This document shows positions 2,940 to 62,613 of a DNA stretch of 64,000 nt, one piece after another. Both the position numbers and the translations under genes were made by a program. Origin of the DNA: a bacterium (GTDB lineage Bacteria > CG2-30-53-67). Each line of letters starts with the position of its first letter. Within the stretch, counting starts at the first letter, position 1. The notes beneath the pieces were generated by a model. It saw only the letters and a program-made list of their open reading frames with translations. It did not search any database and was not told the DNA's origin. Location of the stretch: positions 520 to 64,519 of the forward strand of contig JAJRUP010000152.1 of assembly GCA_024277725.1 (NCBI GenBank). The letters are read 5' to 3'.

Positions 2940-3188
2940 CCTCCATCCAGACGCGCTGCACGTATCGTTCGTGAAGCCGGTCTTGCATCCTCATTCTCTA
3001 AATAGTCCCATTCATATAAGGGGGCCTGTCCGCATGCAACGCCCAGACAGGCGCTTGAGTGCCGCAAAACGGCCTCATCATCATCCCGCTCCCTGGCACC
3101 TACCTACCCGGGGGGGCCTTCGTTGCACGCCTTGAGGAGACCGCCCTGCGGCCCTTCCGATGCATCACCGTATTCACGAACAAGGCCA

Positions 3189-3824
3189 CTATGTCCCGAG
3201 GAATTCTTTTTCCACCCATCGGGAGTCCACCCTGTGGACCGATCTTCTTTCCGCACGCAGGATCGAAAGGAGATCCTCCAGTGCCTCCTCAAATTCATCA
3301 TTGATCAAAAGATAATCATACTTCTCAAACTGTGCAATCTCCTCCCGCGCCTGCTTCAGGCGTCTGATAATCTCCTCTTCAGGGTCCGAGGCCCGCCCCC
3401 GCAGCCGTTTCTCCAGTTCGGCGAAGGAGGGCGTCACAACAAAAACAAAGACCGCTTTCAGGTCCTTCCGTGCCATCAGCTTCTGCGCACCTCCGGCATC
3501 AACATCGAGGATCACGTCGGAACCTGCTTCCTGGATCTCCCGGACCACCCTTTTGGAAGTCCCGTAGAAATTCCCATGGACCGGCGCCCATTCCAGGAAC
3601 TCCCCCTTCGCCGCCATGTCTTCAAAGACGGTCGGATCGACAAAAAAGTAATCACGACCATCCACCTCCCCGGAACGGGGGGGACGGGTCGTATAAGAGA
3701 TGGAATGGGTTAACCTCGGAAGTCGCTCAACCGCCGCACGGCAAAGCGAGGTCTTGCCCGCACCGGAAGGAGCAGAGAGAACCACCAGGAGCCCTTCCCT
3801 GCCCACATGCGATTCACTCATCAT
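3189..3824 (-). CDS. gmk: guanylate kinase
   Basis: P-loop GAGKTS and YTTRPPR motif, VDGRDYFFV. Listed ORF starts at TTG (3836); ATG ATG at about 3824/3821 is more likely. Confidence 0.9.
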   Translation of the reverse strand: MMSESHVGREGLLVVLSAPSGAGKTSLCRAAVERLPRLTHSISYTTRPPRSGEVDGRDYFFVDPTVFEDMAAKGEFLEWAPVHGNFYGTSKRVVREIQEAGSDVILDVDAGGAQKLMARKDLKAVFVFVVTPSFAELEKRLRGRASDPEEEIIRRLKQAREEIAQFEKYDYLLINDEFEEALEDLLSILRAERRSVHRVDSRWVEKEFLGT

Positions 3825-3900
3825 GGAATAGTTCAAGAAGATCGATTAGAGTAAAATCCAGCAATCCATAATCGAAAAAAGAGGTGTAGACGGCAAATCC

Positions 3901-4200
3901 TCAGGATCCGGAAGAAGAAATTTCCTTTTTGCCGCCGGACTCAAAGGTCTCCTTTTCCGCCTTGGTAAAGAACCGCTGGCTGATGGTTTCCGCCTGCACC
4001 GCGGAAAGAATGACATGATCACTGTCCGTGACCAGGATGGCCCGCGTCCTTCTCCCCTGCGTGGCGTCGATCAGCTTTCCCGACCCTTTTGCCACTTCTT
4101 TCAATCTCTTCATAGGAGCGGAACTCGGCGTCACCACCGCCACAATCCGTTCCGCCACAACGACGTTTCCGTAACCGATGTTGATAAGATCTTTTGTCAT
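3901..4200 (-). CDS. DUF370 / RemA-family protein
   Basis: [33 protein letters not shown] is the typical RemA/DUF370 N-terminus. Conserved yicC-remA-gmk order. Start chosen at the internal Met. Confidence 0.7.
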
Positions 4201-4293: not shown

Positions 4294-5163
4294 TTATTCA
4301 ACATTCTGGATCTGTTCCCGTAATTTTTCCAGTTCGCTCTTGCAGGTCACCACCCACTGGCTGATCTGAAGATCATTCCCCTTGGAACCGATCGTATTGA
4401 TTTCCCGGTTCATCTCCTGAAGAAGGAACTCCATCCTGCGGCCATGGGGGCCGGAAGCGTTCAGCATATCCCCAAACTGATGTATATGACTCAACAGCCG
4501 GTCTACCTCTTCCGTGATATCACAACGATCGGCAAAAAGGGACACCTCCTGAAGGAGGCGGGTTTCATCAATCTCCTCTCCCGGTTGGAGAGAAACCAAA
4601 CGTTTTGCAAGACGTTCCCGATAGGCTTCCACAACATTCGGTGCCTGTTCTTTGAAACGCTTTTGCATCTCCCCTAAAGTCTCCAAGGAGTCCACAATCC
4701 CCCGCTTCAGGTTCTCCCCTTCGGCCTGCCGCATCACATCGAGAGACGAAAGGGCTTCCTGTAGGGAAGGAAGAAGTTCCTCCCAGATCCGGTCCAGATC
4801 CTGTCCCTCTTCGACAATGCGGAAGATCTCACGATAAGCAACCAGATGATCCAGGGTAACTTCCTGCGATAAACCATAACGTTCCTTCAAACGGTTCATC
4901 GCCTGATAGACCTGGTCGGAAAGGTCTTCATTCACCGCCAACGTACATGCCTCAACGCGGGCAGGATCCGTCGGATTACAGGTGAGGTCAATGCGACCAC
5001 GTTTGATCGTCTTCTTGATCTCCTCCCGGAAACGGGCTTCCAGGGCGGCAAGACTTCGGGAAAAGTGAAAATGGGGATCACTGAAACGGTGATTCACCGA
5101 TCGGATCTCCGTACACCAGCCGCCCGCTTCCCCCCGACCGAAACCGGTCATGCTTTTGATCAT
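4294..5163 (-). CDS. yicC: YicC-family protein (stress-induced RNase YicC-like)
   Basis: MIKSMTGFGRGE N-terminus and C-terminal DUF1732-like region (EFLLQEMNREINTIGSK). Start set at the MIKSMTGFG Met. Confidence 0.8.
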   Translation of the reverse strand: MIKSMTGFGRGEAGGWCTEIRSVNHRFSDPHFHFSRSLAALEARFREEIKKTIKRGRIDLTCNPTDPARVEACTLAVNEDLSDQVYQAMNRLKERYGLSQEVTLDHLVAYREIFRIVEEGQDLDRIWEELLPSLQEALSSLDVMRQAEGENLKRGIVDSLETLGEMQKRFKEQAPNVVEAYRERLAKRLVSLQPGEEIDETRLLQEVSLFADRCDITEEVDRLLSHIHQFGDMLNASGPHGRRMEFLLQEMNREINTIGSKGNDLQISQWVVTCKSELEKLREQIQNVE

Positions 5164-14883: not shown

Positions 14884-14943
14884 ACCTTTTCACCTCCCTG
14901 AATCAAGTTGAATCCTCTCCTACGCTGCTCTCCTGCAGCAGGC

Positions 14944-16350
14944 TTATCTTCTGATCTTTCTTTTCTTCTTCAATTTCTTCCGAAATCTTCCGCCGCCGCT
15001 CATGGCCAGGGAGTTGCCCATACCCATGCCCGGCATCCCGCCGGGAAAAGCCGGAGCCCCCCCTTTGGCAAACATCTTCATCATCTTCTGCATCTGGGAG
15101 AACTGCTGCAAAAGACGGTTGAGGTCCTGCACCGTCGTTCCGCTTCCCCGGGCGATCCGTTTCCTTCGGCTTCCGTTGATGATCTGATGGCGCTGCCGCT
15201 CTTCGGGGGTCATGGAGCCGATCATCGCCTCAATCTTCACGAGTTCCTTTTCATCGGGCCGGGCCGCCGAGAGTTCCGGGAGCCGTCCCATGCCGGGGAT
15301 CATCTTCATCAGGGATTCGAGGGAGCCCATCTTCTTGATATTTCTGAGCTGATCCCGAAAATCATCCAGAGTAAACTGTTCCTTACGGATCTTTCGTTCC
15401 AGCCGGGCCGCCTGCTTCTCGTCAAAGGTCGCCTCCGCCTTTTCGATCAGCGTCAACAAATCCCCCATACCCAGAATCCGGGAAGCCACCCGATCGGGAT
15501 GAAAGACCTCAAGCTGGTCCATTTTCTCACCCATCCCGACAAACTTGATCGGTTTGCCCGTCACATAACGGATGGAAAGGGCGGCACCACCCCGGGCATC
15601 GCCGTCCAACTTGGTCAGGATCACACCGGAAATGTCGAGCACTTCATTAAAGCGCTGGGAGATATTGACCGCATCCTGTCCCGTCATGGCATCGGCCACG
15701 AAGAGAATCTCGTGAGGCGAAACCTTCGCCTTGATTCGCGAAAGCTCCTCCATCAGGGTTTCATCAATATGGAGCCGCCCCGCCGTATCCATCAGGACCA
15801 GGTCAAATCCCTCGGAGCGGGCCTTGGTCATCGCCTCGTCGCAGATCGAGACGGGGTCGCGGCTCTCCGTGCTGTAGACCGGGATGCCCAGTTGCTCCCC
15901 CAGGACCTGAATCTGTCGTATGGCGGCGGGACGGTAGACATCGGCGGCCACCATGAGGGGACGGTGCCCTTTTCTCTTGTAAATCCGGGCCATCTTGCCG
16001 ATGGTCGTGGTCTTCCCCGAACCCTGCAACCCCACTACCATGATTACCGTCGGAGGGGTGGAAGCGAGTTGAATCCGGCTGTCCGTCGCCCCCATGAGGT
16101 CCGTCAATTCATCCTGGACAATCTTGATGAACTGTTGGCCCGGATTGAGACTCTGATGGACCTCCGCCCCGAGGGAACGCTCCTTCACCTTTTCGAGAAA
16201 ACTCCGGACGACTTTGTAGTTCACGTCCGCCTCAAGAAGGGCCATTTTGACTTCCTTCAAGGCCTCCCGGACGTTTTCATCGGAAAGTTTCCCCTTGCCG
16301 GTGACGTTTCTAATAATTGAATTCAGTTTTTCCGAAAGGGTATCAAACAC
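14944..16350 (-). CDS. ffh: signal recognition particle protein Ffh
   Basis: NG domain (GLQGSGKTTT, DTAGR, TKLDGDARGG) plus a Met-rich M domain and basic tail. Confidence 0.95.
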   Translation of the reverse strand: MFDTLSEKLNSIIRNVTGKGKLSDENVREALKEVKMALLEADVNYKVVRSFLEKVKERSLGAEVHQSLNPGQQFIKIVQDELTDLMGATDSRIQLASTPPTVIMVVGLQGSGKTTTIGKMARIYKRKGHRPLMVAADVYRPAAIRQIQVLGEQLGIPVYSTESRDPVSICDEAMTKARSEGFDLVLMDTAGRLHIDETLMEELSRIKAKVSPHEILFVADAMTGQDAVNISQRFNEVLDISGVILTKLDGDARGGAALSIRYVTGKPIKFVGMGEKMDQLEVFHPDRVASRILGMGDLLTLIEKAEATFDEKQAARLERKIRKEQFTLDDFRDQLRNIKKMGSLESLMKMIPGMGRLPELSAARPDEKELVKIEAMIGSMTPEERQRHQIINGSRRKRIARGSGTTVQDLNRLLQQFSQMQKMMKMFAKGGAPAFPGGMPGMGMGNSLAMSGGGRFRKKLKKKRKIRR

Positions 16351-17333: not shown

Positions 17334-17593
17334 GAGAAAACCTCCCGGAAGATTTAAAAAATATGGACAGCCTACCCGAATCCCTCCCTTCTGTCAAAGG
17401 GGAATTTCAGGAGAAAAGCGGAAATTATCACGAAAGGAGTAGTGCAAAAATGAGGAGATCACGAATAAATTTACCAGGATTTGAGTAATTTAGTAATTCC
17501 CGGCGATTTTTTTGTGACTTTTCCCCTCCTTATCCCACTAATATACTGATTTTTTGTTTTATCGTTCAAAACGCGAAATAAGGAGTGACAAAA

Positions 17594-18940
17594 ATGGCAA
17601 TGATCACGGAAAGAATCTCAATCGACTCAGGAAAGATCCAAAACTTCATCTTGCAGTTCATCCTCTTGACCCTCCTCCTCCCCTTCCATGCAGAGGCGGC
17701 AGCCAACTATACGTTGGGGATGATCAGCGACCCCACTTACGGAATCATCGACCGGAACCCCGTGCTCGACAACACGGGCCGGGTGGCCTGGGAACAGAAA
17801 CGGCCCAACCCCGACGGCTGGTCCTACAGCTCCGGGATCCATCTCTACGACGGCGGGACCCACACCTTCCTCGGGGACTATACCCACGAGAACGTGGGTC
17901 CGACCCTGAGCGACTCGGGCTCACTTGTGTGGAGGGACAGAACCACAAGAGAAATCAAACAATACAGCAACTCTTCGACCCAGACGATCGGTTCCTACCT
18001 GGCCTACACGGACCAGGCGGTCAGCCGGGACGGCAAGGTGGCCTGGTACTACGCCGATTCCAGCAGCGGATCGAGCAACAACGCCTTTTATCTCTACTAC
18101 CACGGCACGACGAACGTCTCCCCGAACGCAGGCTATTTCGACTATCCCGCGTACACCATATACAAACCCTACGGAAACGCTTCCGGAGCTTACGCCCCGA
18201 AGGTCAACAATGCCGGACAGACCGTCTGGATGGGAGGCGTGTACGACCAGGAGATCTTCGTCTACGACAGTGCGGCCGGGACCATCAGCAATATCAGCAA
18301 CCGGAGCTTCGACGACTACTACCCGGACATCAACGACAGCGGCGAGATCGTCTGGTATGGTGTAACCTCCACCGATACGGGATACCCATACGGATACCCC
18401 ACCGAGGCCGATCTTTTCTACTACAACGGTTCTGCCGTGCAAAGCATCACGGGAAATCCGGTAAGCACCAGCGGGGGTTATTCGGCGCCGCTCATCAACA
18501 ACAACGGCCAGATCGCCTACGTCGGCCCCGACACCGATCCCGGGGGCACCGACCTGGAGGTCTTCCTCTACGATATCGCATCCGGCACCACCCTCCAGAT
18601 CACGCACGACGATATCTGGCAGCCCTTCTATTTAAGCATGAACGATTACGGCCAGCTCGCCTGGGTCGGGGTCGCCAAAGACCTCTCCACCGACGACGAG
18701 GTCTTCGTCTGGGACGGGAGCGTCGTGCAGCAGCTCACCCACGACGACGGCAACGCCCTGAACACCTCCATCAACAACCTGGGCCAGGTGGTGTGGGAAA
18801 ACTATGATACCAATCCCTCCAACCAGGACTGGGAGGTCTGGCTCGCCACACCCACGGCCGTTCCCGAACCGGGCAGTCTCCTGTTGATCGCCTCGGGCAT
18901 CACCCTCCTCTCCCTGCGGCGTTCCCGGAACGGTTCATAA
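17594..18940 (+). CDS. secreted repeat protein with PEP-CTERM sorting signal
   Basis: ATG at 17594 with AAGGAG upstream and a signal peptide. About eight ~45-aa repeats (E[VI]F[VL][YW]DG...T......[IL]N[ND].G[QE][IV][AV]W.G, ELW-DGT-like). C-terminus VPEPGSLLLIASGITLLSLRRSR is PEP, then a TM helix, then an Arg cluster. AT-rich upstream region. Confidence 0.7.
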   Translation: MAMITERISIDSGKIQNFILQFILLTLLLPFHAEAAANYTLGMISDPTYGIIDRNPVLDNTGRVAWEQKRPNPDGWSYSSGIHLYDGGTHTFLGDYTHENVGPTLSDSGSLVWRDRTTREIKQYSNSSTQTIGSYLAYTDQAVSRDGKVAWYYADSSSGSSNNAFYLYYHGTTNVSPNAGYFDYPAYTIYKPYGNASGAYAPKVNNAGQTVWMGGVYDQEIFVYDSAAGTISNISNRSFDDYYPDINDSGEIVWYGVTSTDTGYPYGYPTEADLFYYNGSAVQSITGNPVSTSGGYSAPLINNNGQIAYVGPDTDPGGTDLEVFLYDIASGTTLQITHDDIWQPFYLSMNDYGQLAWVGVAKDLSTDDEVFVWDGSVVQQLTHDDGNALNTSINNLGQVVWENYDTNPSNQDWEVWLATPTAVPEPGSLLLIASGITLLSLRRSRNGS

Positions 18941-18958
18941 CACTCCGCTCCTGTGAGC

Positions 18959-19012
18959 GGTCTTTTCCGCTCCTCCCGAACCTGCCGAAGGAGGAGCGGA
19001 AAAGACCCATTT
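18959..19012 (+). terminator. stem-loop downstream of the PEP-CTERM gene (18-bp perfect stem)
   Basis: ggtcttttccgctcctcc / ggaggagcggaaaagacc perfect inverted repeat with a 13-nt loop, then catttctcc, 19 bp after the stop codon. Confidence 0.55.
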
Positions 19013-20150: not shown

Positions 20151-22292
20151 ATGAACCGGGAAAGGAAAGAACACCTGGAAGAAATTCTGAAATTACGCGA
20201 GGAGAACGCCTTCTTCCGTAAGACCCTGAACGAAACCTCGGCAGGACAGGAACTCCTCCGGCAGCGGAAGGAATTCGCCCAGGTCCTCAAAGTCAGTCAG
20301 GCCGTCGTCTCCGAACTCGACTTGCAGAAGGTCCTGAACCTCGTGGCGCAATCGGCCCGGGAAATCATCGAGGCCGAGACAGTCGTCGTCCCGATCCTGA
20401 ACGAGGAGCGTGACCATTATGCATACATGGCGGCGGTAGGAGAAGGCGCCGGGGAATTCGCCAATCTGCAATACAAGATTCATGTCGGCATGTGCGGCTG
20501 GGTCCTCCGCAACGAACGTCCCCTCCTCTTCGGGGAACCGGCAGAGTGGTGGATAGAGGAAAAAACCCCTTGGGAGGAGGGACAGCAGTCGGCCCTCCTG
20601 GTTCCTCTCTCCGGCCGGAAAGGAATCATCGGAGGGCTTTCCGGCCTCGGCAAGAAGGGAGGCGGGAGCTTCACCGAACATGATCTCGAACTTCTGACTC
20701 TCTTTGCAAACCAGGTGAGCATCGCCATTGAAAACGCCCGCCTTTTCCAGGAAAAAGAAGAAGTCATCTCTGATCTGGAAAAGGAAAAGGAGCGGCTGGC
20801 CGTGACCCTGCGCAGTATCGGCGACGGGGTGATTACCGCCGATATGGCAGGCCGCGTCATCCTGATCAACAAGGTCGCGGAAGAACTCACCGGCTGGAGT
20901 CAAAAGGAGGCGGCAGGACAACCCCTGCAGTCGATTTTTCACATCATCAACGAGAAAACGCGTATCCGCTGCGAAGATCCCGTCGCAAAGGTCCTCAGCT
21001 CAGGAAAGGTCATCGGCCTGGCCAACCACACCCTTCTCATCGCAAAAGACGGCACGGAACGGATCATTGCCGACAGCGGAGCACCGATCCGGGACCGGGA
21101 AAGCCGGGTGATCGGCGCCGTTCTCGTCTTCCGGGATATTACCGAGAAAAGGAAAATCGAATCGGAACTGTTGAAAATCAAGAAACTTGAATCCCTGGGC
21201 GTCCTGGCCGGAGGCATCGCCCATGATTTCAACAACATCCTCGTCGCCATTCTCGGGAACCTCAGCCTCGCCACGGCAAACCTCTCACCTGAAGATAACC
21301 TCTTTCCCCTCCTCCGGGAGGCCGAGAAGGCCTCTCTCCGTGCCCAGGGATTGACCCGCCAACTGCTCACCTTCTCCAAGGGGGGAGCACCGGTCAGGAA
21401 ACTCGCCTCCATGACCGAGGTGATCCGTGATTCCTGCAACTTCGTTCTCCGGGGAAGCCGTGTCCGGTGTACCTACCGGATTCCGAAGGACCTCTGGCCG
21501 GTAGAAATCGACACCGGTCAGATGAGCCAGGTGATTCAGAACCTGGTCATCAATGCCGTCCATGCCATGCCGGAAGGCGGCACCATCGAGATCGCCTGTG
21601 CCAACCTGGCGCGAGGCAGAGAAGAGGCCCCGACGCTTTCCGAAGCTCCCTATGTAAAAATCCTCATTCGCGACCGGGGAGCGGGGATTGCCCCGGAACT
21701 GATCGACAAGATCTTCGATCCCTACTTCACCACCAAAGAGGAGGGAAGCGGCCTCGGGCTCACCGTAACCCATTCCATTGTCACCAAACACGACGGACAC
21801 ATTGCGGTTGCCTCCGAGAAGGAAGGAGGCACAATTTTCACCATTTACCTCCCCGCCGTCACAGTGAAGGTCCCCGGGGGGAAAAGCACTCCCCGGACAT
21901 CGCCGGGAAAAGGCAATGGAAAAATCCTCGTCATGGACGATAAGGAGATCGTCCGCACCGTGGCCTGGAACATGCTGACCCACGCAGGTTACGAGATCGT
22001 CTCCGTTGTCTCCGGCGAGGAAGCCGTACAATACTACCGCAAAGCCGCCGAAGACGGTCATCCCTTTGATCTGGTCATCGCGGATCTCACCGTTCCCGGA
22101 GGAATGGGAGGAACAGCCACGGCCGCAGAAATCCACCGGACCCATCCCGAAGCAAAGATCATCGCTTCCAGCGGGTATTCCAACGACTCCGTCATGGCGG
22201 ATTACGAAAAATTCGGTTTCTGCGGCGCCGTGGCCAAACCCTACCGTATGCAGGAATTGCTGGAGGTCGTCGCCCGGGTCATGGAAGAATAG
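20151..22292 (+). CDS. hybrid sensor histidine kinase (GAF - PAS - HisKA - HATPase_c - receiver)
   Basis: GAF-like N-terminus, PAS (ITADMAGRVILINKVAEELTGW), H-box (GGIAHDFNN), N/G boxes (NLVINAVHAM..DRGAGI..GSGLGL), C-terminal receiver (ILVMDDKE...DLVIADLTVPGG..KP). Confidence 0.85.
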   Translation: MNRERKEHLEEILKLREENAFFRKTLNETSAGQELLRQRKEFAQVLKVSQAVVSELDLQKVLNLVAQSAREIIEAETVVVPILNEERDHYAYMAAVGEGAGEFANLQYKIHVGMCGWVLRNERPLLFGEPAEWWIEEKTPWEEGQQSALLVPLSGRKGIIGGLSGLGKKGGGSFTEHDLELLTLFANQVSIAIENARLFQEKEEVISDLEKEKERLAVTLRSIGDGVITADMAGRVILINKVAEELTGWSQKEAAGQPLQSIFHIINEKTRIRCEDPVAKVLSSGKVIGLANHTLLIAKDGTERIIADSGAPIRDRESRVIGAVLVFRDITEKRKIESELLKIKKLESLGVLAGGIAHDFNNILVAILGNLSLATANLSPEDNLFPLLREAEKASLRAQGLTRQLLTFSKGGAPVRKLASMTEVIRDSCNFVLRGSRVRCTYRIPKDLWPVEIDTGQMSQVIQNLVINAVHAMPEGGTIEIACANLARGREEAPTLSEAPYVKILIRDRGAGIAPELIDKIFDPYFTTKEEGSGLGLTVTHSIVTKHDGHIAVASEKEGGTIFTIYLPAVTVKVPGGKSTPRTSPGKGNGKILVMDDKEIVRTVAWNMLTHAGYEIVSVVSGEEAVQYYRKAAEDGHPFDLVIADLTVPGGMGGTATAAEIHRTHPEAKIIASSGYSNDSVMADYEKFGFCGAVAKPYRMQELLEVVARVMEE

Positions 22293-22317
22293 CTTTCCCA
22301 AAGAAACCAACACAACA

Positions 22318-22593
22318 CTAAGTGGTCCTGTTCGTAAATACTGTGACGCACCGAGAGGGTCGCAGGGCGGTCTCGTCTCCGCGCGCGACGGAGGCGGTAC
22401 GTACCCCTTGTGGTACGGTGCAGGGAGCGCATCCCAAGATACCTTAATGTGTCAGCCGCCGCAGGCGGCATCAATTAAGGTAAAGCGGGAGTCTGGCCCA
22501 GCGAAGGCTTGCCTTCGCTGGGGAAAAGACAACGAAGAAGAGGCCGTCCTGCGGCACTCAAATGCCACCGTATTTACGAATAGGGCCACTAAG
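22318..22593 (+). ncRNA. candidate structured RNA / MITE-like element closed by a 24-nt inverted repeat
   Basis: ctaagtggtcctgttcgtaaatac (22318-22341) pairs with gtatttacgaatagggccactaag (22570-22593) at 21/24. Two of the three mismatches are G-U-compatible only on the plus strand. Interior holds at least four strong GC hairpins (palindrome ggtacgtacc; accttaat...attaaggt; cccagcgaagg-cttg-ccttcgctggg). Confidence 0.4.
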
Positions 22594-22709
22594 GGAGAGC
22601 CTGACCCCGGAACGCTGCAAGGCTCCACATTCGCATTGTTTCCCGAAACGTTTTGTGATATACATCATTTTCAGACTCCCTTTCAGGATCCCGGTGAAGA
22701 TATCGTTTC

Positions 22710-24623
22710 ATGAACCTCTTCCGTAAATTTTATTCCTCCAGTCCCTTTCCGGCTGTCGCAACGGTTTATCTGGCGGTCTCCCTGCTCCTGCGCCTTCTCC
22801 TTTGGTGGTCCTTCGGACGGCCTGCCGAAGTTTCTCCATGGCACCTGCCGGCCATACTCGGGTTCGGAGCCGTCAACGACCTCGCGGAACTTTTCTACCT
22901 CCTCGCACCGGTTGTCTTCTACCTGCTGCTGCTCCCCTCCGGAATCGCACGCTCCGCACGGCACCGTCGTTTCCTCACCGGATGCACCTATCTGGTCCTT
23001 TTCGGAATGCTTTATATCTCGGCAGCGGAATATTTCTTTTTCGAGGAATTCGATTCCCGGTTCAACCTGATGGCCGTCGACTATCTCGTCTATCCGCATG
23101 AGGTATGGGGCAACATCTGGGATTCGTACCCGGTCCTCCCCGTCCTTGCGGCAACAGCAATCCTTTCCATGGTCCTCCTGAAATTGATCGGACCGACGCT
23201 GCAAAACTGGCTCCTGGATCCTCCCCACCCGCTCAACCGCAGAAAGTTATTGCTCGGCTACATACTGACGCTGGCACTGATCTTTGAGGGGTTTTCCACC
23301 ACTACGCTGGCTCATTCTACAAACCGGGTGGAAAATGAACTGACCGTAAACGGAATCAGCAGCCTCTTCCAATCATTTCGTACGCATGAACTCGACTACA
23401 ATCTCTACTATCCGACCCTCGGCCACGACCGGGCCTTCCAACGTATTCGCAACCACCTTGCCGAAGGGCGAGGCACTTTGGATCCGTCGCTGGGAGAAAA
23501 CCTGAATCGAACCTTTCAAGCCGACCCCGCCGGCCTGGGAAAAATGAACGTCGTCATCATTGTCGAGGAGTCGCTGGGCGCAGGATTTGTCGGTGCCTAC
23601 GGCGATCGGCGCGGATTGACACCCGTTTTCGACAAACTGGCCGAGGGGGGGCTTCTGTTCGAAAACACCTATGCCACGGGGACCCGGACCGTGCGTGGGC
23701 TGGAGGCAATCACCGCTTCCTTCCCTCCGATCCCGAGCGTTTCAATCCTTCGGAGACCGGGCAATGAAGGGATTGCCACGTGGGGAAAGGTGATGCGGAA
23801 CAACGGTTATGCCACTTCGTTCCTCTACGGCGGTTACGGCTATTTCGACAACATGAATTATTTTTACCGGAACAACGGCTTTGCCGTCAGTGATCGGGGG
23901 GAGATCAAAAAGGTGACCTTCGCCAATATCTGGGGGGTCTGCGACGAGGACCTTTTCAACCACGCGCTTGACTATTACGATACACTCCACCGGCAGAATC
24001 GTCCTTTCTTCTCCATCGTGATGACCACCTCCAATCACAAACCCTTTACCTTCCCGGAGGGAATTCCGGGCATTCCCCACAAAGGAGGGGGAAGAAAGGC
24101 GGGGGTCCGTTACGCCGATTATGCCCTGGGACGTTTTTTCAGCCAGGCACCGCAACATCCCTGGTTCGGCAACACACTTTTTGTGATCGTAGCGGATCAC
24201 GACGCTCGCGTTTACGGACGGTTACAGATCCCCCTACGCCACTACCGGATCCCCCTGCTGATCTACGCACCGGGGAAGATCTTACCGCAGAGGGTTGCAA
24301 CCCCTACCAGCCAGATCGACATCGCCCCGACGGTCCTGGGACTGCTCGGGCTCCCTTATCGTGCACCCTTTTACGGCCGGGACATCCTGAAGGTCCCCCC
24401 CGGGGAACCCCACCCCGTCCTCCTCAGCCACAATCATGATGTGGCGCTCTTCCAGGACGGCAAGCTGACCGTGTTGGGAATGGACGGAAAACTCACCACC
24501 TTCCGTTATCTTCCAAAGAAACATCGCTTGATCCCGGTCGGGGATAACCCCGCAATTACGGAACTGGCAATTGCCTATTACCAGACCGCCTTTGAGCTTT
24601 TCAAATCCCACCGGTACCAATGA
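22710..24623 (+). CDS. LTA-synthase/sulfatase-family membrane protein (phosphoglycerol- or phosphoethanolamine-transferase-like)
   Basis: 637 aa. Five or so N-terminal TM helices, then an alkaline-phosphatase-superfamily domain (VVIIVEESLG..TRTVRG..MTTSNHKPF..VIVADHD). Confidence 0.75.
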   Translation: MNLFRKFYSSSPFPAVATVYLAVSLLLRLLLWWSFGRPAEVSPWHLPAILGFGAVNDLAELFYLLAPVVFYLLLLPSGIARSARHRRFLTGCTYLVLFGMLYISAAEYFFFEEFDSRFNLMAVDYLVYPHEVWGNIWDSYPVLPVLAATAILSMVLLKLIGPTLQNWLLDPPHPLNRRKLLLGYILTLALIFEGFSTTTLAHSTNRVENELTVNGISSLFQSFRTHELDYNLYYPTLGHDRAFQRIRNHLAEGRGTLDPSLGENLNRTFQADPAGLGKMNVVIIVEESLGAGFVGAYGDRRGLTPVFDKLAEGGLLFENTYATGTRTVRGLEAITASFPPIPSVSILRRPGNEGIATWGKVMRNNGYATSFLYGGYGYFDNMNYFYRNNGFAVSDRGEIKKVTFANIWGVCDEDLFNHALDYYDTLHRQNRPFFSIVMTTSNHKPFTFPEGIPGIPHKGGGRKAGVRYADYALGRFFSQAPQHPWFGNTLFVIVADHDARVYGRLQIPLRHYRIPLLIYAPGKILPQRVATPTSQIDIAPTVLGLLGLPYRAPFYGRDILKVPPGEPHPVLLSHNHDVALFQDGKLTVLGMDGKLTTFRYLPKKHRLIPVGDNPAITELAIAYYQTAFELFKSHRYQ

Positions 24624-24874: not shown

Positions 24875-25990
24875 ATGTGCCGATTAAGCGCAGTCACTTC
24901 CGACCAATACTTCTCTCCCATGGAGAACATCCTGGCCCTTGAAACCATGAAGGAAGGGCACGACGGTTCCGGTCTGGGCCTGGTCTTGAAGGACCTGGGC
25001 GGAGAATTCGAGCATCTCAAGGAATATCCGATCCTCTCCGGAATCTGTTCCAACAAAGGAATGGAAGCCCTGAATCATTATATGGAAGAAGCGGGCTTTG
25101 TAGAAAAATTCATGTGGGAACCTCGAATCCGGGAGATCCCGGGTTCGGGAATCACCCGTCGCGACCACTATTTCGCCAAGGCCTACAAATATCCACCTGC
25201 TTTCCAGGACAAAAACGAAGAAGAAAAAGAACAACTCCTTTTGGAAACCCGGTTAGCCCTCCGGGACCTGGGAGAAGCCGACGAGTCGATCTTCGTCTTC
25301 TCTTTCTATCCCGATGTCATCACCTTGAAATCGGTCGGCGACCCCCTGCAGGTGGGAGAATTCTTCGGTCTCGACAAGGATTCACTGACGGCGAAGATTA
25401 TCTTTGCCCAGGGACGGCAGAACACCAATTACGCCATTTATCTTTATGCCTGTCATCCCTTTTTCATTGAAGGCTATTGCACCATGACGAACGGGGAGAA
25501 CACGGCTTTCGTTCCGATCCGGGAATTTTTAACCAGCCGCGGGTTTGCAGGTTACCGGGGGTACAACAGCGACAGCGAGGTCTTCACCCACATCCTCCAC
25601 TATTGTCATCGACAACTCAAATTCCCCCTCCCCTATTTCAAGGATGTCATCACTCCTCTGCAGGAAGGGGAGATCGAAGGGCGTTCGGACCGTGATGCCG
25701 TCCGCCTGATCAAGAAATCCCTACGGCCCCTCTGCATCGACGGACCGAATTGCATAATCGGATTTACCCCGGACGGCACGGTCTTCATGACCCAAGACGC
25801 CAAGAAACTCCGGCCCGGCGTTGTCGGCGGCGTGCCCGGCAAATACGCCCTCATGTCCGAGGAGTGCGGGCTCGACCGGGCCGTACCGGAACGAGACAAG
25901 ACACAAGACATCTGCCCCATGAAATATGATATGGTGGTGGTTTCTCCGGGAGCCAGAAAGGTAACAAAATGGAACCAGCTGAACGTTTAG
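24875..25990 (+). CDS. glutamate synthase, class-II glutamine amidotransferase subunit (archaeal-type domain 1)
   Basis: Begins MCRL (Cys2 nucleophile typical of Ntn class-II GATases). First of three adjacent genes that together cover glutamate synthase domains. Confidence 0.8.
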   Translation: MCRLSAVTSDQYFSPMENILALETMKEGHDGSGLGLVLKDLGGEFEHLKEYPILSGICSNKGMEALNHYMEEAGFVEKFMWEPRIREIPGSGITRRDHYFAKAYKYPPAFQDKNEEEKEQLLLETRLALRDLGEADESIFVFSFYPDVITLKSVGDPLQVGEFFGLDKDSLTAKIIFAQGRQNTNYAIYLYACHPFFIEGYCTMTNGENTAFVPIREFLTSRGFAGYRGYNSDSEVFTHILHYCHRQLKFPLPYFKDVITPLQEGEIEGRSDRDAVRLIKKSLRPLCIDGPNCIIGFTPDGTVFMTQDAKKLRPGVVGGVPGKYALMSEECGLDRAVPERDKTQDICPMKYDMVVVSPGARKVTKWNQLNV

Positions 25991-30146: not shown

Positions 30147-31358
30147 TTACATCCCCAAACTGGCGAGCAGATCATCGACATCCTGCTGACTGCCGACATT
30201 CGCTTCACAGACACTCTCACTTGATTCCTGGCTCTGGGCGTTAAATTCAACGGCCAGTTCCGGATTCATGATGCAAAGCACCTCTCGAAGGGTTCCCGTC
30301 AACGTATTGATCTGCTGACTGACCTTGTCGGCAAATTGCAGGCTCATCTCCGCTTCATCAATCCAGGGGATCACATCCTCCGGGACCTCGTCCCGAAGCT
30401 TACCCAGAATCTTCACGATCGTTTCGGTATTGCTGGCAATCCCTTTCCGGACATGCTGTGTCTTCCGGTGAAAATCCGAGGCGTCGACAATCTCTTCCAG
30501 TTTGTTCAGCACGGCCTTATAGAGTCCCAGAATCTTTTCCCGTTCTTCCATCCGGTGATAACGGTCGAGAAAGGCCACCAACTGGTTCTTGAAGAGGTGT
30601 ACCAGGTCGACCAGACGTCCGTCATCGGACGATATTGTCTCCAGAGGCCGGACCTTCATGGAACCGGCATAATCGGCCTTGCTGAAAAAGACACGGACCG
30701 AACCGTCCTCGGAGAGGGAATGGTTGTAGGTGTTGCGGATCCGTTCCCGGATCTTTGCCTGTTTTTTCGGCTCATCCTCAAAATCGATCGAGCACTCCAT
30801 CCCCAGATCCTTGAGAGTATCTACAACCAGACGGCAGGCTTCCTCCAGATCGAGGGTTTCCTGAAGATACTGCCCGCAGTGAACCAGCCCCGCCAGATCT
30901 TCATGCAACTGGATCAGGGCACCGGCATATTCTTCCATGAGTTTTTTCGACTTCTCCAGGGCACGACATTCCTCCCGTTCCTTCCACCGGGATCGGGCTG
31001 ATCGCGCCATCTGCCGGAACATCAGTGCCGAGGCCGCCTCCGACCGGGGTTGCTCGATGATCATCGTATGATCGGACACCGGCAATCCAGCGGTGATGCC
31101 CGACGTCATCTCGTCAAGCACCACCGTACACTGGATTTCCGGAAACCTGCGGGCCAGCGCATCGGACATGGAAAAGGCATCCCGTTCCGGGGGGGAGTGG
31201 GAGATCAACACCGATGCCCCGGGACATGAATCCAATAATTCCACCGCTTCCTCTTCCGTATCGACAAGAAGGGTCCGTACATTTTCCGTGCAGAACTCCT
31301 CCCCCGGATGTGCGAAGGGGAAAGCACCCACAGCGATCACATTCCATTCCGCATCCAT
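30147..31358 (-). CDS. hypothetical protein with a degenerate receiver-like N-terminal domain
   Basis: 403 aa. The N-terminal ~110 aa (NVRTLLVDTEEEAVELL...ASVLIS) are receiver-like; the rest is a helical acidic region with no recognised motif. Divergent from lptF. Confidence 0.5.
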   Translation of the reverse strand: MDAEWNVIAVGAFPFAHPGEEFCTENVRTLLVDTEEEAVELLDSCPGASVLISHSPPERDAFSMSDALARRFPEIQCTVVLDEMTSGITAGLPVSDHTMIIEQPRSEAASALMFRQMARSARSRWKEREECRALEKSKKLMEEYAGALIQLHEDLAGLVHCGQYLQETLDLEEACRLVVDTLKDLGMECSIDFEDEPKKQAKIRERIRNTYNHSLSEDGSVRVFFSKADYAGSMKVRPLETISSDDGRLVDLVHLFKNQLVAFLDRYHRMEEREKILGLYKAVLNKLEEIVDASDFHRKTQHVRKGIASNTETIVKILGKLRDEVPEDVIPWIDEAEMSLQFADKVSQQINTLTGTLREVLCIMNPELAVEFNAQSQESSESVCEANVGSQQDVDDLLASLGM

Positions 31359-33947: not shown

Positions 33948-34017
33948 ACCGGGGGACCCGTTCCCGAAATACCATGGCATTCGAGTGTCCCAAGACGGCA
34001 CACAAGAAAAAGGCCGA

Positions 34018-40210: not shown

Positions 40211-41077
40211 TTAATTCCCCACCTCGCTCTTCGGGCCGCTCCCCTGGATATACCGCCGCTTACGGACCTCCGAGGCTCGTTCACTCATCTTCCGGTACCG
40301 TTCAATAAATCCGATGCGGGGATGATCCACAAAGATTCCCGTAATGATCTTTCCTTCCCGTTCCTCGTCGGTCATCTTTTCCGCCTTTTCCCTGGGAACA
40401 CTGTCCTTCTTGAAATGTTCCAGAAAGGTCACCGGGTTCGGGGTACGGTTCCGCCGGCCATAAACGGTCGGACATTGGGTTACCGCCTCGACCAGGGAAA
40501 ACCCTTCCCGATCCAGCGCTTTGGCAATATACCCTTCGAGTTGGGCGGCATGATAAACGGTACTCCGTGCCACAAAGGACGCCCCCGCGCCCTCCGTCAG
40601 CCGGACGATATCAAAATTGGGCTCCACCTGGCCGTAGGGAGCGGTACTGGCCATCTTGCCTTCCGGGGTGGCGGGGGAATATTGCCCGCCCGTCATGGCA
40701 TAGATGGAATTGTTGAAAAGGATCACCGTCAGGTCCATGTTCCGCCGTGCGGCATGGATCAGGTGGTTTCCGCCGATGGCCAGCGCATCGCCGTCACCGG
40801 TGACGACAATCACATGGAGCCGCGGTTTGGCGATTTTGATCCCCGTGGCAAAGGCGATCGCACGGCCGTGGGTCGTGTGGAGGGTGTTGAAATCGAGGTA
40901 TCCCGAAGTCCGGCTGGAACAGCCGATTCCCGAGACAACCACCACATCGTCCTTGCTCCATCCCATCTTATGAATGGCGCGGATCAGGGCTTTGACGACG
41001 ATCCCGTTCCCGCAACCGGGGCACCAGATATGGGGAAAGGTGGACGGTCGGATGTATTGCTCATAATCAAAGGCCAT
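40211..41077 (-). CDS. korB: 2-oxoacid:ferredoxin oxidoreductase beta subunit (TPP-binding)
   Basis: WCPGCGNG, GIGCS, GDGDALAIGGNH TPP motif. Confidence 0.9.
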   Translation of the reverse strand: MAFDYEQYIRPSTFPHIWCPGCGNGIVVKALIRAIHKMGWSKDDVVVVSGIGCSSRTSGYLDFNTLHTTHGRAIAFATGIKIAKPRLHVIVVTGDGDALAIGGNHLIHAARRNMDLTVILFNNSIYAMTGGQYSPATPEGKMASTAPYGQVEPNFDIVRLTEGAGASFVARSTVYHAAQLEGYIAKALDREGFSLVEAVTQCPTVYGRRNRTPNPVTFLEHFKKDSVPREKAEKMTDEEREGKIITGIFVDHPRIGFIERYRKMSERASEVRKRRYIQGSGPKSEVGN

Positions 41078-41123
41078 CGTTCAACCCTTTCGAAAAATCG
41101 CTCCCGGGATCGTACGCCTCTTC

Positions 41124-42293
41124 TCAGTCGACCTCCAGAATCCTGTCCAGGATCTCCTCCGGAGAGATGGGCAGGGCGTCGACCCGGTTGAGAGGAACCA
41201 ATCGGGACGAAGGTTCGATCCATTTGCGGACTTCCCCGGCCAACTGTCCGAAACTCAACTCCGGAACGATGATCCGCCGTACTCCCCTGCAGAACTCCCC
41301 CAGTTCCCGGATGGGAAAAGGCCAGATGGTGACGGGGCGGAAAAAACCGACGTTTTTTCCCCGTTGCCATGCCTCTTTCACGGCATGATTTGCCGCCCGC
41401 GCCGTCGAACCGAAGGCCACAACAACCGTATCGAGGGATCCCTGCTGATCTTCCGGAACGATCTGCTCCACATTCCGGATCTCCTCCGCTCCCCGTTCGA
41501 TCTTGCCAATGAGACGTTCCGCCTGACACCGGACCTGTTCCGGCAATCCCGTAGGAAATCCTGTTTCATCGTGATACAGCCCCGTGATGTGAAAGCGGTA
41601 TCCCTCGCCGAAGGCTGCCAGGGGCGAGACATCCCGATCATTGGCATAGGGAAGATACTTATCCTTCGGTCCCCCGGGAGACAACCGGTCGACCACCGAA
41701 TATTCCGCAGGATCGGGAATAACGACCTTCTCCCGCATGTGGGCCAGGATCTCATCCATGAGGAGGATCACCGGTGTCCGGAACCTCTCGGCAAGGTTGA
41801 AGGCCCGGATCGTTTCAGAAAAGACCTCCCGAACCGAGGAAGGGACGAGGACGATCATCGGGTGGTCCCCGTGGGTCCCCCAGCGTGTCTGCATCAGGTC
41901 CGCCTGGGAAGGTCCCGTGGGATGCCCCGTGGAAGGACCGGAACGCATGACATCAATGATCACACAGGGGATCTCCGCCATGCAGGCAAATCCGATGTTC
42001 TCCTGTTTCAGGGAAAATCCGGGACCGCTGGTGGCGGTCATCGATTTCACCCCGGCGATGGAGGCCCCGATCACGGCGGCAATCGAGGCGATCTCATCCT
42101 CCATCTGGATAAAGTTTCCTCCCACTCTCGGAAGGTAGAGAGAGAGAACCTCGGCAATCTCGGAAGAGGGGGTAATCGGATAGCCGGCAAAGAAACGGCA
42201 CCCCGCCGCCAGGGCGCCTTCGGCACAGGCCTCATTCCCCTGCATGAGGCGGACATCCCGCCCCTTCTTCTCTCCTTCGGCACGAGGCGTCAT
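41124..42293 (-). CDS. korA: 2-oxoacid:ferredoxin oxidoreductase alpha subunit
   Basis: LMQGNEACAEGALAAGCRFFAGYPITPSSEI. Start set at the Met near 42293; the ORF extends to 42428 into korD. Confidence 0.85.
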   Translation of the reverse strand: MTPRAEGEKKGRDVRLMQGNEACAEGALAAGCRFFAGYPITPSSEIAEVLSLYLPRVGGNFIQMEDEIASIAAVIGASIAGVKSMTATSGPGFSLKQENIGFACMAEIPCVIIDVMRSGPSTGHPTGPSQADLMQTRWGTHGDHPMIVLVPSSVREVFSETIRAFNLAERFRTPVILLMDEILAHMREKVVIPDPAEYSVVDRLSPGGPKDKYLPYANDRDVSPLAAFGEGYRFHITGLYHDETGFPTGLPEQVRCQAERLIGKIERGAEEIRNVEQIVPEDQQGSLDTVVVAFGSTARAANHAVKEAWQRGKNVGFFRPVTIWPFPIRELGEFCRGVRRIIVPELSFGQLAGEVRKWIEPSSRLVPLNRVDALPISPEEILDRILEVD

Positions 42294-60480: not shown

Positions 60481-61282
60481 CTTCCTTCCCTTTCACCTGT
60501 TCGCCTGTCATGCCGTATCGCCGTTCCCGTTTCTGGTAATCGAGGAGTGCTTCGAGAAACTCCTTCCGTTTGAAGTCGTGCCAGAGGATAGAAGTAAAAT
60601 AGAGTTCGGTATAGACCGACTGCCAGGTGAGAAAATTACTGACCCGAAGCTCGCCGCTCGTCCGGATAATCAGGTCCGGATCGGGGCAGTCTCTCGTGTA
60701 CATCCGGGCGCTTAATACCGCTTCATCAATCTCCTCGGGCCGGATCCGGCCGTCGGCAACTTCCTGTGCCAGGGACTGCACCGCATCGATAATCTCCGCC
60801 CGTCCACCGTAACTCAAGGCAAGATTCAGAGTCATCTGTTGATTCGCTCCCGTCTCCCTCTCGGCCCAATGGAGGAGTTCCTGGATATTCTCCGGCAGGT
60901 CCCGGATCCTCCCGATGGCCCGGAAACGGATCCCCTTCTCCTGCATCACCCGAACTTTCTTTTTGATATATTCCTTGAGAATCCCCATGAGGGCCCGGAC
61001 CTCGGCCCGCGGACGCTGCCAGTTCTCCGCGGAAAAGGCATAGAGGGTCAGGACACGGACACCTGTTTCGCGGGCGCAGGCGACCACTTCGTCGACGGAA
61101 CGCACCCCTTCCTTGTGCCCCATGATACGGGGGAAGGAACGCGCTCCGGCCCATCGGCCGTTTCCATCCATAATAATGGCGACATGGTAGGGAAGTGCGG
61201 CAGGATCAATCTGGTGAAAGAGGCCCGGATAACGTTTTGCCGTCTCGTTGCATTCTCCCGTAGGAGGCAAATCTTTGTTCAT
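60470..61282 (-). CDS. uppS: isoprenyl transferase (undecaprenyl diphosphate synthase)
   Basis: HVAIIMDGNGRWA and the RTSGE...FLLWQ-like C-terminal motif. Confidence 0.9.
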   Translation of the reverse strand: MNKDLPPTGECNETAKRYPGLFHQIDPAALPYHVAIIMDGNGRWAGARSFPRIMGHKEGVRSVDEVVACARETGVRVLTLYAFSAENWQRPRAEVRALMGILKEYIKKKVRVMQEKGIRFRAIGRIRDLPENIQELLHWAERETGANQQMTLNLALSYGGRAEIIDAVQSLAQEVADGRIRPEEIDEAVLSARMYTRDCPDPDLIIRTSGELRVSNFLTWQSVYTELYFTSILWHDFKRKEFLEALLDYQKRERRYGMTGEQVKGKEDAS

Positions 61283-61333
61283 CGGATTGATTGTATCCGT
61301 TTTGGAATGACATCATCTTGCGAGGGGACCTTC

Positions 61334-61891
61334 TCAGACCGTCATGACATCTTCTTCCTTGGCCTGGAGGACCTGATCCGCCTCCTTGACAAATTCATCG
61401 GTCAGCTTCTGAATCTCGTCCATGGCTTTATGAAGTGCATCTTCGGTGATCTCTTTTTCTTTTTCCATCTTCTTGAGTTTGTCATTCGCCTCTTTCCGGG
61501 CGTGTCGAACCGCAACCCGGCAGTCTTCGGCCATATTCCGGATGACCTTCACGATCTCCCGTCTTCGCTCTTCCGTCAGTTCCGGGATGGTAATCCGGAT
61601 CACCTTGCCGTCATTGGAAGGCGTCAACCCCAGGTCCGAAGAGAGAATGGCCTTTTCGATCGCCTTCAAAGCCGAGGCATCCCAGGGCTGAACGGCAATG
61701 GTCCGGCTCTCCGGAACCGAAAGGGTGGCCATCTGGTTCAGACGGGTGGCCGTCCCGTAATAGTCGACCATGACATGGTCCAGGATCCCCGTCGAAGCAC
61801 GGCCCGTCCGGACCCGGGCGTATTCTTTCTTCAAGGCTTCGATGGCCTTCTCCATCTGCGCTTGGGTCCTCGATTTCAATTCCGTAATCAT
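61334..61891 (-). CDS. frr: ribosome recycling factor
   Basis: 185 aa with a typical RRF coiled-coil (VRTGRA..LL). Confidence 0.9.
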
Positions 61892-62613
61892 GATTCCCCT
61901 CCCCGTACCAAGGTACCGATTCTCTCTCCAGCCAACACCTTATTGATGTTTCCTTTTTTCATCATATTGAATACGATAATCGGCAGGTTGTTGTCCATGC
62001 ATAAGGAGATTGCCGTGGCATCCATCACTTTCAAGCGCTTTTGCAGGACATCGAGGTACGTCACCTCCGGCAGGAACTGTGCACGGTCGTCCTTCATCGG
62101 GTCCGCCGTATAGACACCGTCGACCTTGGTCGCCTTCATGATAACGTCGGCATTGATCTCCATGGCACGGAGGGCCGCCGCCGTATCGGTGGTGAAGAAG
62201 GGATTGCCCGTTCCGCCGCCGAAAATCACCACCCGTCCCTTCTCCAGATGGCGGGTCGCCCGTCTCCGGATGTAGGGTTCGGCCAGTTCCTTCATCTCCA
62301 GGGCGGAGAGAACCCGCGTATCGATCCCCACATTCTCCAGGACATTCTGGAGGGCCAGGGCATTCAGCATGGTCGCCAACATCCCCATGTAGTCGCCCGT
62401 GGCCCGGTCCATCCCCTGGGCAACACCGGCAACCCCCCGAAAGATATTTCCCCCGCCGATGACCAGCGCCGTCTCGACATGGAGCGCCGTAATCTCCTTG
62501 ACTTCCTCGGCAATGGTCCGGAGGGTCTCGGGATCAATCCCGTAGGCCTGTTTCCCCATCAGGGCTTCTCCGCTCAACTTGAGCAGCACCCTTCTGTATT
62601 TAAGATCTGCCAC
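61888..62613 (-). CDS. pyrH: UMP kinase
   Basis: [22 protein letters not shown] start with GGGAAAGGA RBS. Candidate -35/-10 (TTGCCG-17-TACTAT) about 40 nt upstream. Confidence 0.9.

Follow-up and report, generated by a model that had tools for sequence, protein, structure and literature searches.

A GC-rich intergenic multi-hairpin beside a hybrid histidine kinase gene is very probably one copy of a small non-coding MITE family with 3-bp TWA target duplications

Several families of small mobile DNA are known that fold back on themselves and settle between genes. ERIC elements of enterobacteria and Correia-type elements of Neisseria are MITEs built as imperfect palindromes of ~100–160 bp that form long RNA hairpins when transcribed; both make a TA duplication, and longer ERIC variants carry internal insertions at fixed sites. 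REP and IS200/IS605 elements are inserted without target duplication and have no long terminal inverted repeats. The PIF/Harbinger elements, which gave rise to the Tourist MITEs, have terminal repeats of 14–25 bp with the motif G(N)5GTT, are flanked by 3-bp TTA/TAA duplications and employ an IS5-like transposase (PMC2213677). Members of the IS1031 group, which belongs to the IS5 family, recognise a three-nucleotide sequence where they insert (PMC2516522). The end of ISPg4, GAGACTGTTGCA, is an IS5-family end with G(N)5GTT, and bacterial MITEs with IS5-family ends have been documented (PMC4596501). Chunjie, a MITE of Geobacter uraniireducens, measures ~180–235 bp, occurs as size variants and partial copies, and gives RNA folds of ~−98 to −130 kcal/mol; it is A+T-rich and has 21-bp repeats and 9-bp direct repeats (PMC3184786, PMC10969869). 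The element described here is, when the evidence is taken whole, very probably one copy of a small non-coding MITE family. It is thus an ordinary kind of object and not a dedicated regulatory RNA of the neighbouring gene.

The window, meaning the whole 64,000-nucleotide stretch of DNA that was analysed, is a housekeeping piece of chromosome carrying coaBC, rpoZ, gmk, remA, yicC, sucCD, dxr, ispG and tsf. Its IspG is 88–98% identical to proteins of ‘Deltaproteobacteria bacterium’ entries or unnamed MAGs and ~68–70% identical to those of Geobacter and Desulfuromonas, which places the host in an uncultured lineage related to Desulfuromonadales-type bacteria. Exact-protein look-ups of the sulfatase-family protein, of gmk (two starts), of rpoZ (two starts) and of one further protein (P0011) returned no record. 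Upstream of the element lies a gene for a GAF-PAS-HisKA-HATPase-REC hybrid kinase (20151–22292), and downstream one for a sulfatase / LTA-synthase-family protein (22710–24623); this domain composition agrees with the flanking genes named in the first-pass annotation, which was made from the letters of the DNA.

The same annotation had described a GC-rich multi-hairpin closed by a 24-nt terminal inverted repeat, and the sequence at 22318–22593 bears this out: the inverted repeat and the internal hairpins are there, and the fold is exceptional. The outer arms (22318–22345 and 22566–22593) are 28 nt long and 86% complementary by the repeat finder, with a 24-nt core that pairs at 21 of 24 positions; two of the three mismatches are G-U on the plus strand, just as had been stated. 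Inside them the repeat finder located an inner repeat of 27 nt (22355–22381 with 22533–22559, 78%) and a perfect 12-bp stem (22497–22508 with 22511–22522). A 9-bp stem (22440–22448 with 22474–22482) encloses GCCGCC-GCAG-GCGGC, and GGTACGTACC is also found within the element, so that the internal stems reported earlier are real. The predicted minimum free energy (MFE) of the plus-strand RNA is −156.9 kcal/mol against −101.8 ± 5.0 for dinucleotide shuffles (z = −11.1), a fold far beyond chance; the minus-strand RNA reaches −135.0 (z = −7.2), and the plus strand is therefore favoured by 22 kcal/mol. The element is 268 nt in size, and only spurious open reading frames cross it (22006–22713 on the plus strand, 22241–22474 on the minus strand).

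Read along the plus strand, the parts of the element follow a simple order. A TAA (22319–22321), which is repeated identically after the 3′ repeat, precedes the 5′ terminal inverted repeat GTGGTCCTGTTCGTAAATACTGTG (22322–22345); this repeat is nearly invariant in the family alignments and pairs with 22566–22589. The 5′ half of the family core (22346–22429) holds a conserved subterminal loop, ACGCACCGAGAG, the 5′ strand of the inner helix (22358–22374) and a small apical hairpin region. The 3′ half (22530–22565) holds the 3′ strand of that helix (22540–22555) and a subterminal loop, ACTCAAATGC, conserved in the family alignments; in the studied copy the inner helix includes three G-U pairs. The 3′ terminal inverted repeat CACCGTATTTACGAATAGGGCCAC (22566–22589), taken from the repeat finder and from the tabulation of copies, is followed by the second TAA (22590–22592). 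Between the two halves of the core, and forming the apex of the fold-back, lies an extra module of ~100 nt (22430–22529) with two strong hairpins at 22440–22482 and 22497–22522. It is inserted near the apex, between GGGAGCG and AACGA, and is missing from all other full-length copies in the family alignment. Its first 46 nt recur, at 91% identity, only in the copy on locus L005, and no further match was found in the window or in the fetched loci. A nested repeat was considered for this module and rejected, as no other copy exists except the part in L005 and its borders show no duplication. It is this two-hairpin module that gives the studied copy its multi-branched-RNA look. The earlier remark that the interior is not self-complementary end to end consequently holds for the studied copy, which carries the module, and fails for the canonical members of ~160 nt, each of which is one nearly continuous hairpin.

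The element is not alone in the window. When the window and the first loci were searched with the element by blastn at low stringency, a second copy appeared on the minus strand at ~3190–3055, in the spacer between gmk and rpoZ (79% over 75 nt). This second copy, W2, extends over 2998–3189 and scores 49.5 bits (E = 1.5e-10) with R1, a covariance model that was trained on 27 full-length copies. W2 sits in a conserved yicC-remA-gmk-rpoZ-coaBC cluster; its 5′ repeat begins at 3189, and the first G of the repeat completes the gmk stop codon TAG. It is old and degenerate, and its own target duplication is no longer unambiguous. Several family copies are placed exactly on the stop codons of neighbouring genes. 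A third trace, possibly a solo 3′-end remnant on the minus strand at 33952–34000 in the convergent spacer between lptG and a gene for a TrkA-type channel, was detected by blastn (82% over 33 nt) and then compared by eye with the 3′ end of the family; it would consist of the 3′ strand of the inner helix and a degenerate 3′ repeat.

Beyond the window, copies were found in genomes of other uncultured bacteria. In a collection of species-representative genomes, a pattern of the shared core recovered two copies on two contigs of the MAG CAYQVN01: a complete one of 163 nt (L004), whose terminal repeats are identical to those of the studied copy, and a 3′-truncated one adjoining a tRNA-Arg gene (L005). 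This MAG is labelled Nitrospirota. A pattern of the 5′ end, GGNCNTGTTCGTNAATNCNGTGANGC, with the flanks left unspecified, matched 34 metagenome contigs, including five of the assembly CAJICE01, and blastn showed that L003, a locus with a related sulfatase gene, carries a copy at a different position, downstream of that gene and antisense to it. R1 recovered two more divergent copies (L033, 4437–4595, and L026, 2357–2505) and gives the studied copy 125.7 bits; the string GTGGYCCTRTTCGTAAATAC could serve as an alternative to the model in searches for the family. Single genomes thus hold dispersed copies, with two and one possible remnant within the 64-kb window, five contigs in CAJICE01 and two in CAYQVN01. 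The family is a small non-coding MITE dispersed in the genomes of uncultured sediment bacteria. A literature search of the searchable papers with the terminal-repeat string found no paper, and the family seems undescribed in searchable sources.

The anatomy of the family is uniform at its ends and variable inside. Canonical copies are 160–163 nt long and carry 24-bp terminal inverted repeats, GTGGYCCTRTTCGTAAATACGGTG; these repeats, and ~10 nucleotides adjoining each of them on the inner side, hardly vary among the 27 copies. The canonical copy is predicted to fold into one long rod, in which the terminal repeats form one helix, a conserved asymmetric internal loop and two or three more helices follow, and a small hairpin caps the apex. 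The interiors sort into subfamilies A (the type of the studied copy), B, C and D. Identity is ~93% within a subfamily, and the subfamilies are 60–68% identical to the studied copy; the copy in L004 matches the latter at 93% over 163 shared positions. Indels between members are not multiples of three, and three loci of a sister subfamily (L007, L014 and L016) carry another hairpin at the apical position where the studied copy has its module. More distant relatives differ in their ends. Type-2 ends (GGGYTCAC...) bound the element at 4440–4593 of L033; the hybrid in L011 combines a left end of type 1 with a right end of type 2, and both of these elements have TTA/TTA flanks. The element of L026 (2357–2505) has a third type of end. 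All three share the core motifs of subfamily B, namely GAGGCGCC, CAAGGCGCG, GCAAC and GGGATGCATCGG. This pattern is most simply read as a superfamily whose MITE lineages have diverged and recombine, and which related transposases serve.

The bases that flank the repeats show how these copies came to lie where they are. Among 27 independent full-length copies, the three bases on either side read TAA/TAA in 11 and TTA/TTA in 10; mixed pairs do not occur, and in the remaining six one or both flanks have changed. The studied copy, with TAA on both sides, belongs to the first group. The tally is unbiased because the flank positions were excluded from the search pattern. An extension of the terminal helix would place TAA opposite TTA, of which there are no cases, and the flanks are therefore not part of the helix. 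Both flank types are found inside each of subfamilies A, B and C, so that the flanks were made at each insertion and were not inherited. They are a 3-bp TWA target-site duplication. C precedes the duplication (position −4) in nearly all cases, and G or sometimes A follows it (position +4), which gives a palindromic CTWAG target used in either orientation (11 versus 10). A TA duplication in the style of IS630/Tc1 was considered and rejected, as the flanks match only under the 3-bp TWA reading.

Comparisons of the same loci in related genomes provide filled, empty and deleted alleles. At the gmk-rpoZ locus, the spacer has 255 nt in the window and 63 nt in L040 (GCA_964644985.1) and L041 (a JGI metagenome), two relatives with identical synteny and a Gmk 88–89% identical. 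By alignment, both are without a block of ~191 nt that corresponds to W2 (window 2998–3188), and they represent empty sites. At the studied locus, the closest relative is L001 (a JGI contig), with the same gene order, a sulfatase-family protein 99% identical and flanking DNA 97.5–99.1% identical. L001 retains both outer arms and is without the inner 208 nt of the studied copy; its junction coincides with a direct repeat of 7 nt that is imperfect: the window reads CTGTGAC ... CTGCGGC, and L001 reads CTGCGAC. The likeliest account of this allele is the loss of internal sequence between short imperfect repeats that lie at the foot of the fold-back, and such deletions are likely a common fate of long palindromes. 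For the studied copy, this internally deleted allele was found and no empty site among the relatives compared; L002, a Logan contig of the same locus, ends inside the element. Neither the full allele nor the allele lacking the 208 nt appears to be required by the kinase and sulfatase-family genes on either side.

The fold-back itself has been kept to a degree that deserves separate consideration. Across subfamilies, 85.3% of the cells remain paired, against 32–42% when partners are slid, and changes on both sides were seen in 27 pairs against 16.1 ± 2.3 in shuffles, in a sample of few and related lineages. The same strand folds better in 27 of 27 copies, by 2.5–26 kcal/mol. This conservation of structure across subfamilies is real. 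Selection or homogenisation of a palindrome at the DNA level would be expected to produce it just as well, and it does not turn the individual copies into RNA genes. Purely selfish DNA would require neither the compensatory conservation of the fold-back nor the preference for one strand in all 27 copies, and both observations sit awkwardly with the MITE explanation, as do the core motifs common to elements with different terminal repeats. It is conceivable, if unlikely, that the fold-back is not incidental at all, and that a superfamily of bacterial Tourist-like MITEs keeps, by compensatory changes and across different terminal repeats, a rod structure always better on the same strand together with the loop motifs CAAGGCGCG...GAGCAAC...GGGATGCATCGG. 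If so, the element would have a function as RNA or as single-stranded DNA, and this could be the recruitment or regulation of the transposase, or that of a transcript-stabilising or transcript-processing module tolerated or exploited by the host.

A different matter is whether the locus encodes a dedicated structured non-coding RNA, either a leader that regulates the sulfatase / LTA-synthase-family gene in cis or a member of a family of small RNA genes with a long closing RNA helix. The first-pass annotation had taken the two G-U mismatches of the outer arms to favour a plus-strand RNA helix over a DNA-level terminal inverted repeat, and had offered a cis-regulatory RNA for the downstream envelope gene among its options. 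The very stable fold, with its plus-strand advantage, speaks for such an RNA, as do the constancy of the favoured strand, the inner helices covarying between subfamilies, and the position of both full window copies in sense orientation between co-directional genes. The wobble positions, on the other hand, do not bear it out. In the outer arms they are U-G in 22 and G-U in 26 of the 27 copies, and a pattern present in nearly every copy has been inherited as a distinction between left end and right end and is not evidence for an RNA at one locus. Over the whole structure, wobbles fixed in a lineage comprise 10 G-U against 4 A-C pairs, in line with an RNA, whereas changes specific to a copy comprise 21 G-U against 20 A-C pairs, so that individual copies decay without regard to RNA pairing. 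The asymmetry was therefore set aside as a proof of RNA function, the lineage-fixed excess not being compelling and the copy-specific changes being symmetric; covariation among few related lineages can, moreover, also arise in DNA palindromes.

The surroundings of the copies lead away from an RNA gene as well. The genes next to family copies are unrelated from copy to copy, and crude calls of open reading frames gave 14 upstream genes co-directional with the copy and 10 opposed to it, and 11 co-directional against 16 opposed downstream genes; neither neighbourhood nor orientation is conserved. The Rfam search proposed in the annotation came back empty, both for the whole window at gathering thresholds and for 22100–22800 at E ≤ 10. 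No promoter-like or terminator-like site was predicted in the spacer between the kinase and sulfatase-family genes. The closest relative with the same gene order (L001) has deleted the whole core, and L003, whose sulfatase-family protein is 73% identical, has a different upstream gene and a spacer of 117 nt, too short for the element. The outer arms that had suggested an RNA helix are conserved terminal inverted repeats of the family, and their flanks behave as a 3-bp TWA target-site duplication, not as helix. A dedicated RNA is accordingly very unlikely, and the proposal of a cis-regulatory RNA is not supported. A retron had already been judged improbable, and this view stands: the adjacent genes encode a histidine kinase and a sulfatase-family protein, neither of them a reverse transcriptase, and copies occur at many unrelated loci. 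The remaining one of the annotation’s three options, a non-autonomous mobile element, is the one that multiple copies, terminal inverted repeats and target-site duplications sustain; the many copies with target-site duplications that it had named as the mark of a plain MITE were indeed found.

A mobile palindrome of another type, of the REP/REPIN kind, would be moved as single-stranded DNA by a RAYT or an IS200/IS605-type tyrosine (HUH) transposase, and recognition of the single-strand fold by the enzyme would account for the strand asymmetry. The element is hairpin-shaped, intergenic and multi-copy, the asymmetry of its fold is consistent, G-T is the least destabilising mismatch in single-stranded DNA, and the L001 allele looks like a REPIN-like doublet hairpin. 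Yet a 3-bp TWA duplication accompanies the 24-bp repeats in 21 of 27 copies, the unit of ~160 nt is much larger than REP units, and no gene for a RAYT or TnpA-Y1 was seen among the window open reading frames tested, all of which makes this mode of transposition extremely improbable.

The weakest alternative, an early reading of L001 in which an intrinsic host hairpin such as the terminator of the kinase gene received a separate 208-nt element in its loop, would explain why L001 retains the outer hairpin and is without exactly the inner 208 nt, with the 7-nt imperfect direct repeat at the junction, but it is rejected by the family alignment and is almost certainly wrong, as arms and core occur as one unit with the same ends at >30 unrelated loci, no part of the family is better conserved than the outer arms, and the hairpin is followed by no T-run and no predicted terminator-like site. 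Since arms and core travel together at all these loci, the L001 allele is an internal deletion of the element.

A MITE family therefore remains, dispersed in multiple copies, with 24-bp terminal inverted repeats, a 3-bp target duplication, presence and absence between related genomes, and decay of its copies regardless of RNA pairing. From its end and target signatures, its style appears to be that of Tourist and the IS5-PIF-Harbinger group. The 24-bp repeat falls within the 14–25 bp range of the latter, and positions 3–11 of the repeat, GGTCCTGTT, fit G(N)5GTT, with the motif starting at base 3, two bases off the tip of the repeat; the type-2 ends (GGGYTCAC...) are without this motif. The element would be cut and pasted by a DDE transposase acting in trans, which would bind the terminal repeats and the conserved subterminal sequences and make cuts staggered by 3 nt at TWA. 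The enzyme might come from an autonomous IS5-family insertion sequence (IS1031-like) or from a PIF/Harbinger relative, by the same logic as for Tourist MITEs. The rod-like fold-back kept across subfamilies probably aids transposition or renders a transcribed insert harmless. The studied copy would then have gained its extra two-hairpin module of 100 nt at the apex, and in the sister strain represented by L001 the same insertion would have lost its inner 208 nt by deletion between CTGTGAC and CTGCGGC.

A search for the source of the enzyme covered several sets of sequences. No transposase was present among 25 window open reading frames scanned, and no autonomous partner in the fetched loci, where repeat-like pairs up to 3 kb apart were chance pairs only; in one of these loci (L017, 117–1740) the open reading frames between two repeat-like sites were, by eye, not transposase-like. 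In plasmid and phage collections blastn found no homologue of the element, and viral contigs had no copy of the terminal repeat, only two chance hits inside a coding region. As the partner was found neither in the window nor in the fetched loci, mobilisation of the IS5/PIF type is something that we infer rather than observe.

These results have consequences for the annotation of uncultured genomes. An intergenic multi-hairpin of −157 kcal/mol mimics a new RNA of riboswitch size, and yet it is a transposon copy; R1 and the signature of repeat and TWA can be used to mask such false RNA candidates in uncultured deltaproteobacteria-like sediment bacteria. The family also breaks metagenome assemblies and marks variation at the level of strains. 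Finally, it offers a clear bacterial case of TTA/TAA duplication and CTWAG targeting, best known from the Tourist / PIF elements of plants.

How the family relates to the systems described so far can be stated point by point. Like ERIC and Correia-type elements it is a fold-back MITE, with no sequence relationship to them and with a different duplication. With Chunjie it shares the existence of size variants and partial copies and very stable predicted folds, and the delta-proteobacterial genus Geobacter, to which the host of Chunjie belongs, is also among the nearest cultured relatives of the present host. It differs from Chunjie in its 3-bp TWA duplication and GC-rich core; identity with Chunjie was considered and excluded, as the 9-bp direct repeats and A+T-rich composition of the latter mark a different family. 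The terminal repeat contains, from base 3, a stretch that fits the G(N)5GTT pattern of IS5-family ends such as GAGACTGTTGCA of ISPg4. Unlike the MITEs derived from IS5 elements, such as those of P. gingivalis with ISPg ends and the ATR/ISNme1 pair of Neisseria, it matches no end listed in PMC2516522 or PMC4596501. In ends and targets the family resembles Tourist and PIF/Harbinger: the elements are small, non-coding, multi-copy and inserted close to genes, their terminal repeats lie in the same range of length, the TTA/TAA duplication is made in a palindromic target, and GGTCCTGTT in the repeat fits a motif of the G(N)5GTT type. The studied family departs from these relatives in its bacterial host, in its GC-rich interior and in a motif that begins at base 3 and not at base 1.

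The studied MITE insertion, which in the window occupies 22318-22593 between the hybrid histidine kinase and sulfatase/LTA-synthase-family genes, is also present in the related locus of a sister strain (L001, 4821-4880), within flanks that are 97.5-99.1% identical. This allele lacks the inner 208 nt, and what remains is a 60-nt hairpin in which both terminal repeats are joined; the 5' duplication has become GAA by mutation. Two further members of the family were found in the window itself, both on the minus strand. The first is a second, degenerate copy (2998-3189) in the gmk-rpoZ spacer, where gmk ends on a TAG stop codon whose G is the first base of the copy. In L040 and L041, two relatives that share this gene order, the spacer is 63 nt long and holds no MITE copy. 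The other is a putative solo 3'-end remnant (33952-34000), located in the 70-nt spacer where an lptG-like gene and a TrkA-type channel gene converge, 18 nt past the stop codon of the channel gene.

In several copies, a long ORF next to the insertion, on one strand or the other, takes its stop codon (TAA, TGA or TAG) from the TWA duplication, alone or together with the first base of the repeat. The overlap is seen at L004 3076/2914, L022 750, L017 7271, L009 273, L012 749 and window 3189, and TAA stop codons within CTWAG seem to be favoured, or at least tolerated, as landing sites in these GC-rich genomes.

The genome carrying L004 and L005 (MAG CAYQVN01) is labelled 'uncultured Nitrospirota bacterium', and the terminal repeats of its copies are identical to those in the window, whereas the closest relatives of the window's housekeeping proteins belong to 'Deltaproteobacteria' MAGs, Geobacter and Desulfuromonas. 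This mismatch could stem from an error in binning or labelling, or the element could have spread horizontally.

One other inverted repeat of the window (18958-19008; arms of ~20 bp, GCGGTCTTTTCCGCTCCTCC / GGAGGAGCGGAAAAGACC, with one mispaired position and a 13-nt loop) has no relation to the MITE family, and its covariance model score came from the structure part only. It may be a terminator-like hairpin, although no T-run follows it. The repeat begins 17 nt past the stop codon of the ORF 17585-18940. For five window ORFs of 289-470 aa (24875-25990, 14908-16320, 30147-31358, 40322-41191 and 60839-62113), Pfam gave no match at the thresholds applied. The ORF listed first (371 aa) has the sulfatase-family gene on one side and a pair of glutamate-synthase-like genes on the other, a position kept in all three related loci examined (L001-L003).

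Core motifs of the family also occur in elements with different terminal repeats, GGGYTCAC... and GCCCGYATTTC..., at L033 4440-4593, L011 11046-11204 (minus strand) and L026 2357-2505 (minus strand). The L011 element is a hybrid whose two ends are of different types, and it retains TTA/TTA flanks.

Part of the extra module of the studied copy is held by a 3'-truncated copy in L005 (3645-3860), whose end is separated by roughly twelve bases from a tRNA-Arg(CCG) gene (3873-3949) that lies on the other strand. The fold-back apex of the MITE appears to be a hot spot of module exchange, since in one subfamily (L007 2291-2476, L014 10697-10882 and L016 5127-5312) the small apical hairpin is replaced by a longer perfect hairpin (GGTGCCAGGCAC...GTGCCTGGCACC), a swap comparable to the 100-nt module at the apex of the studied window copy.
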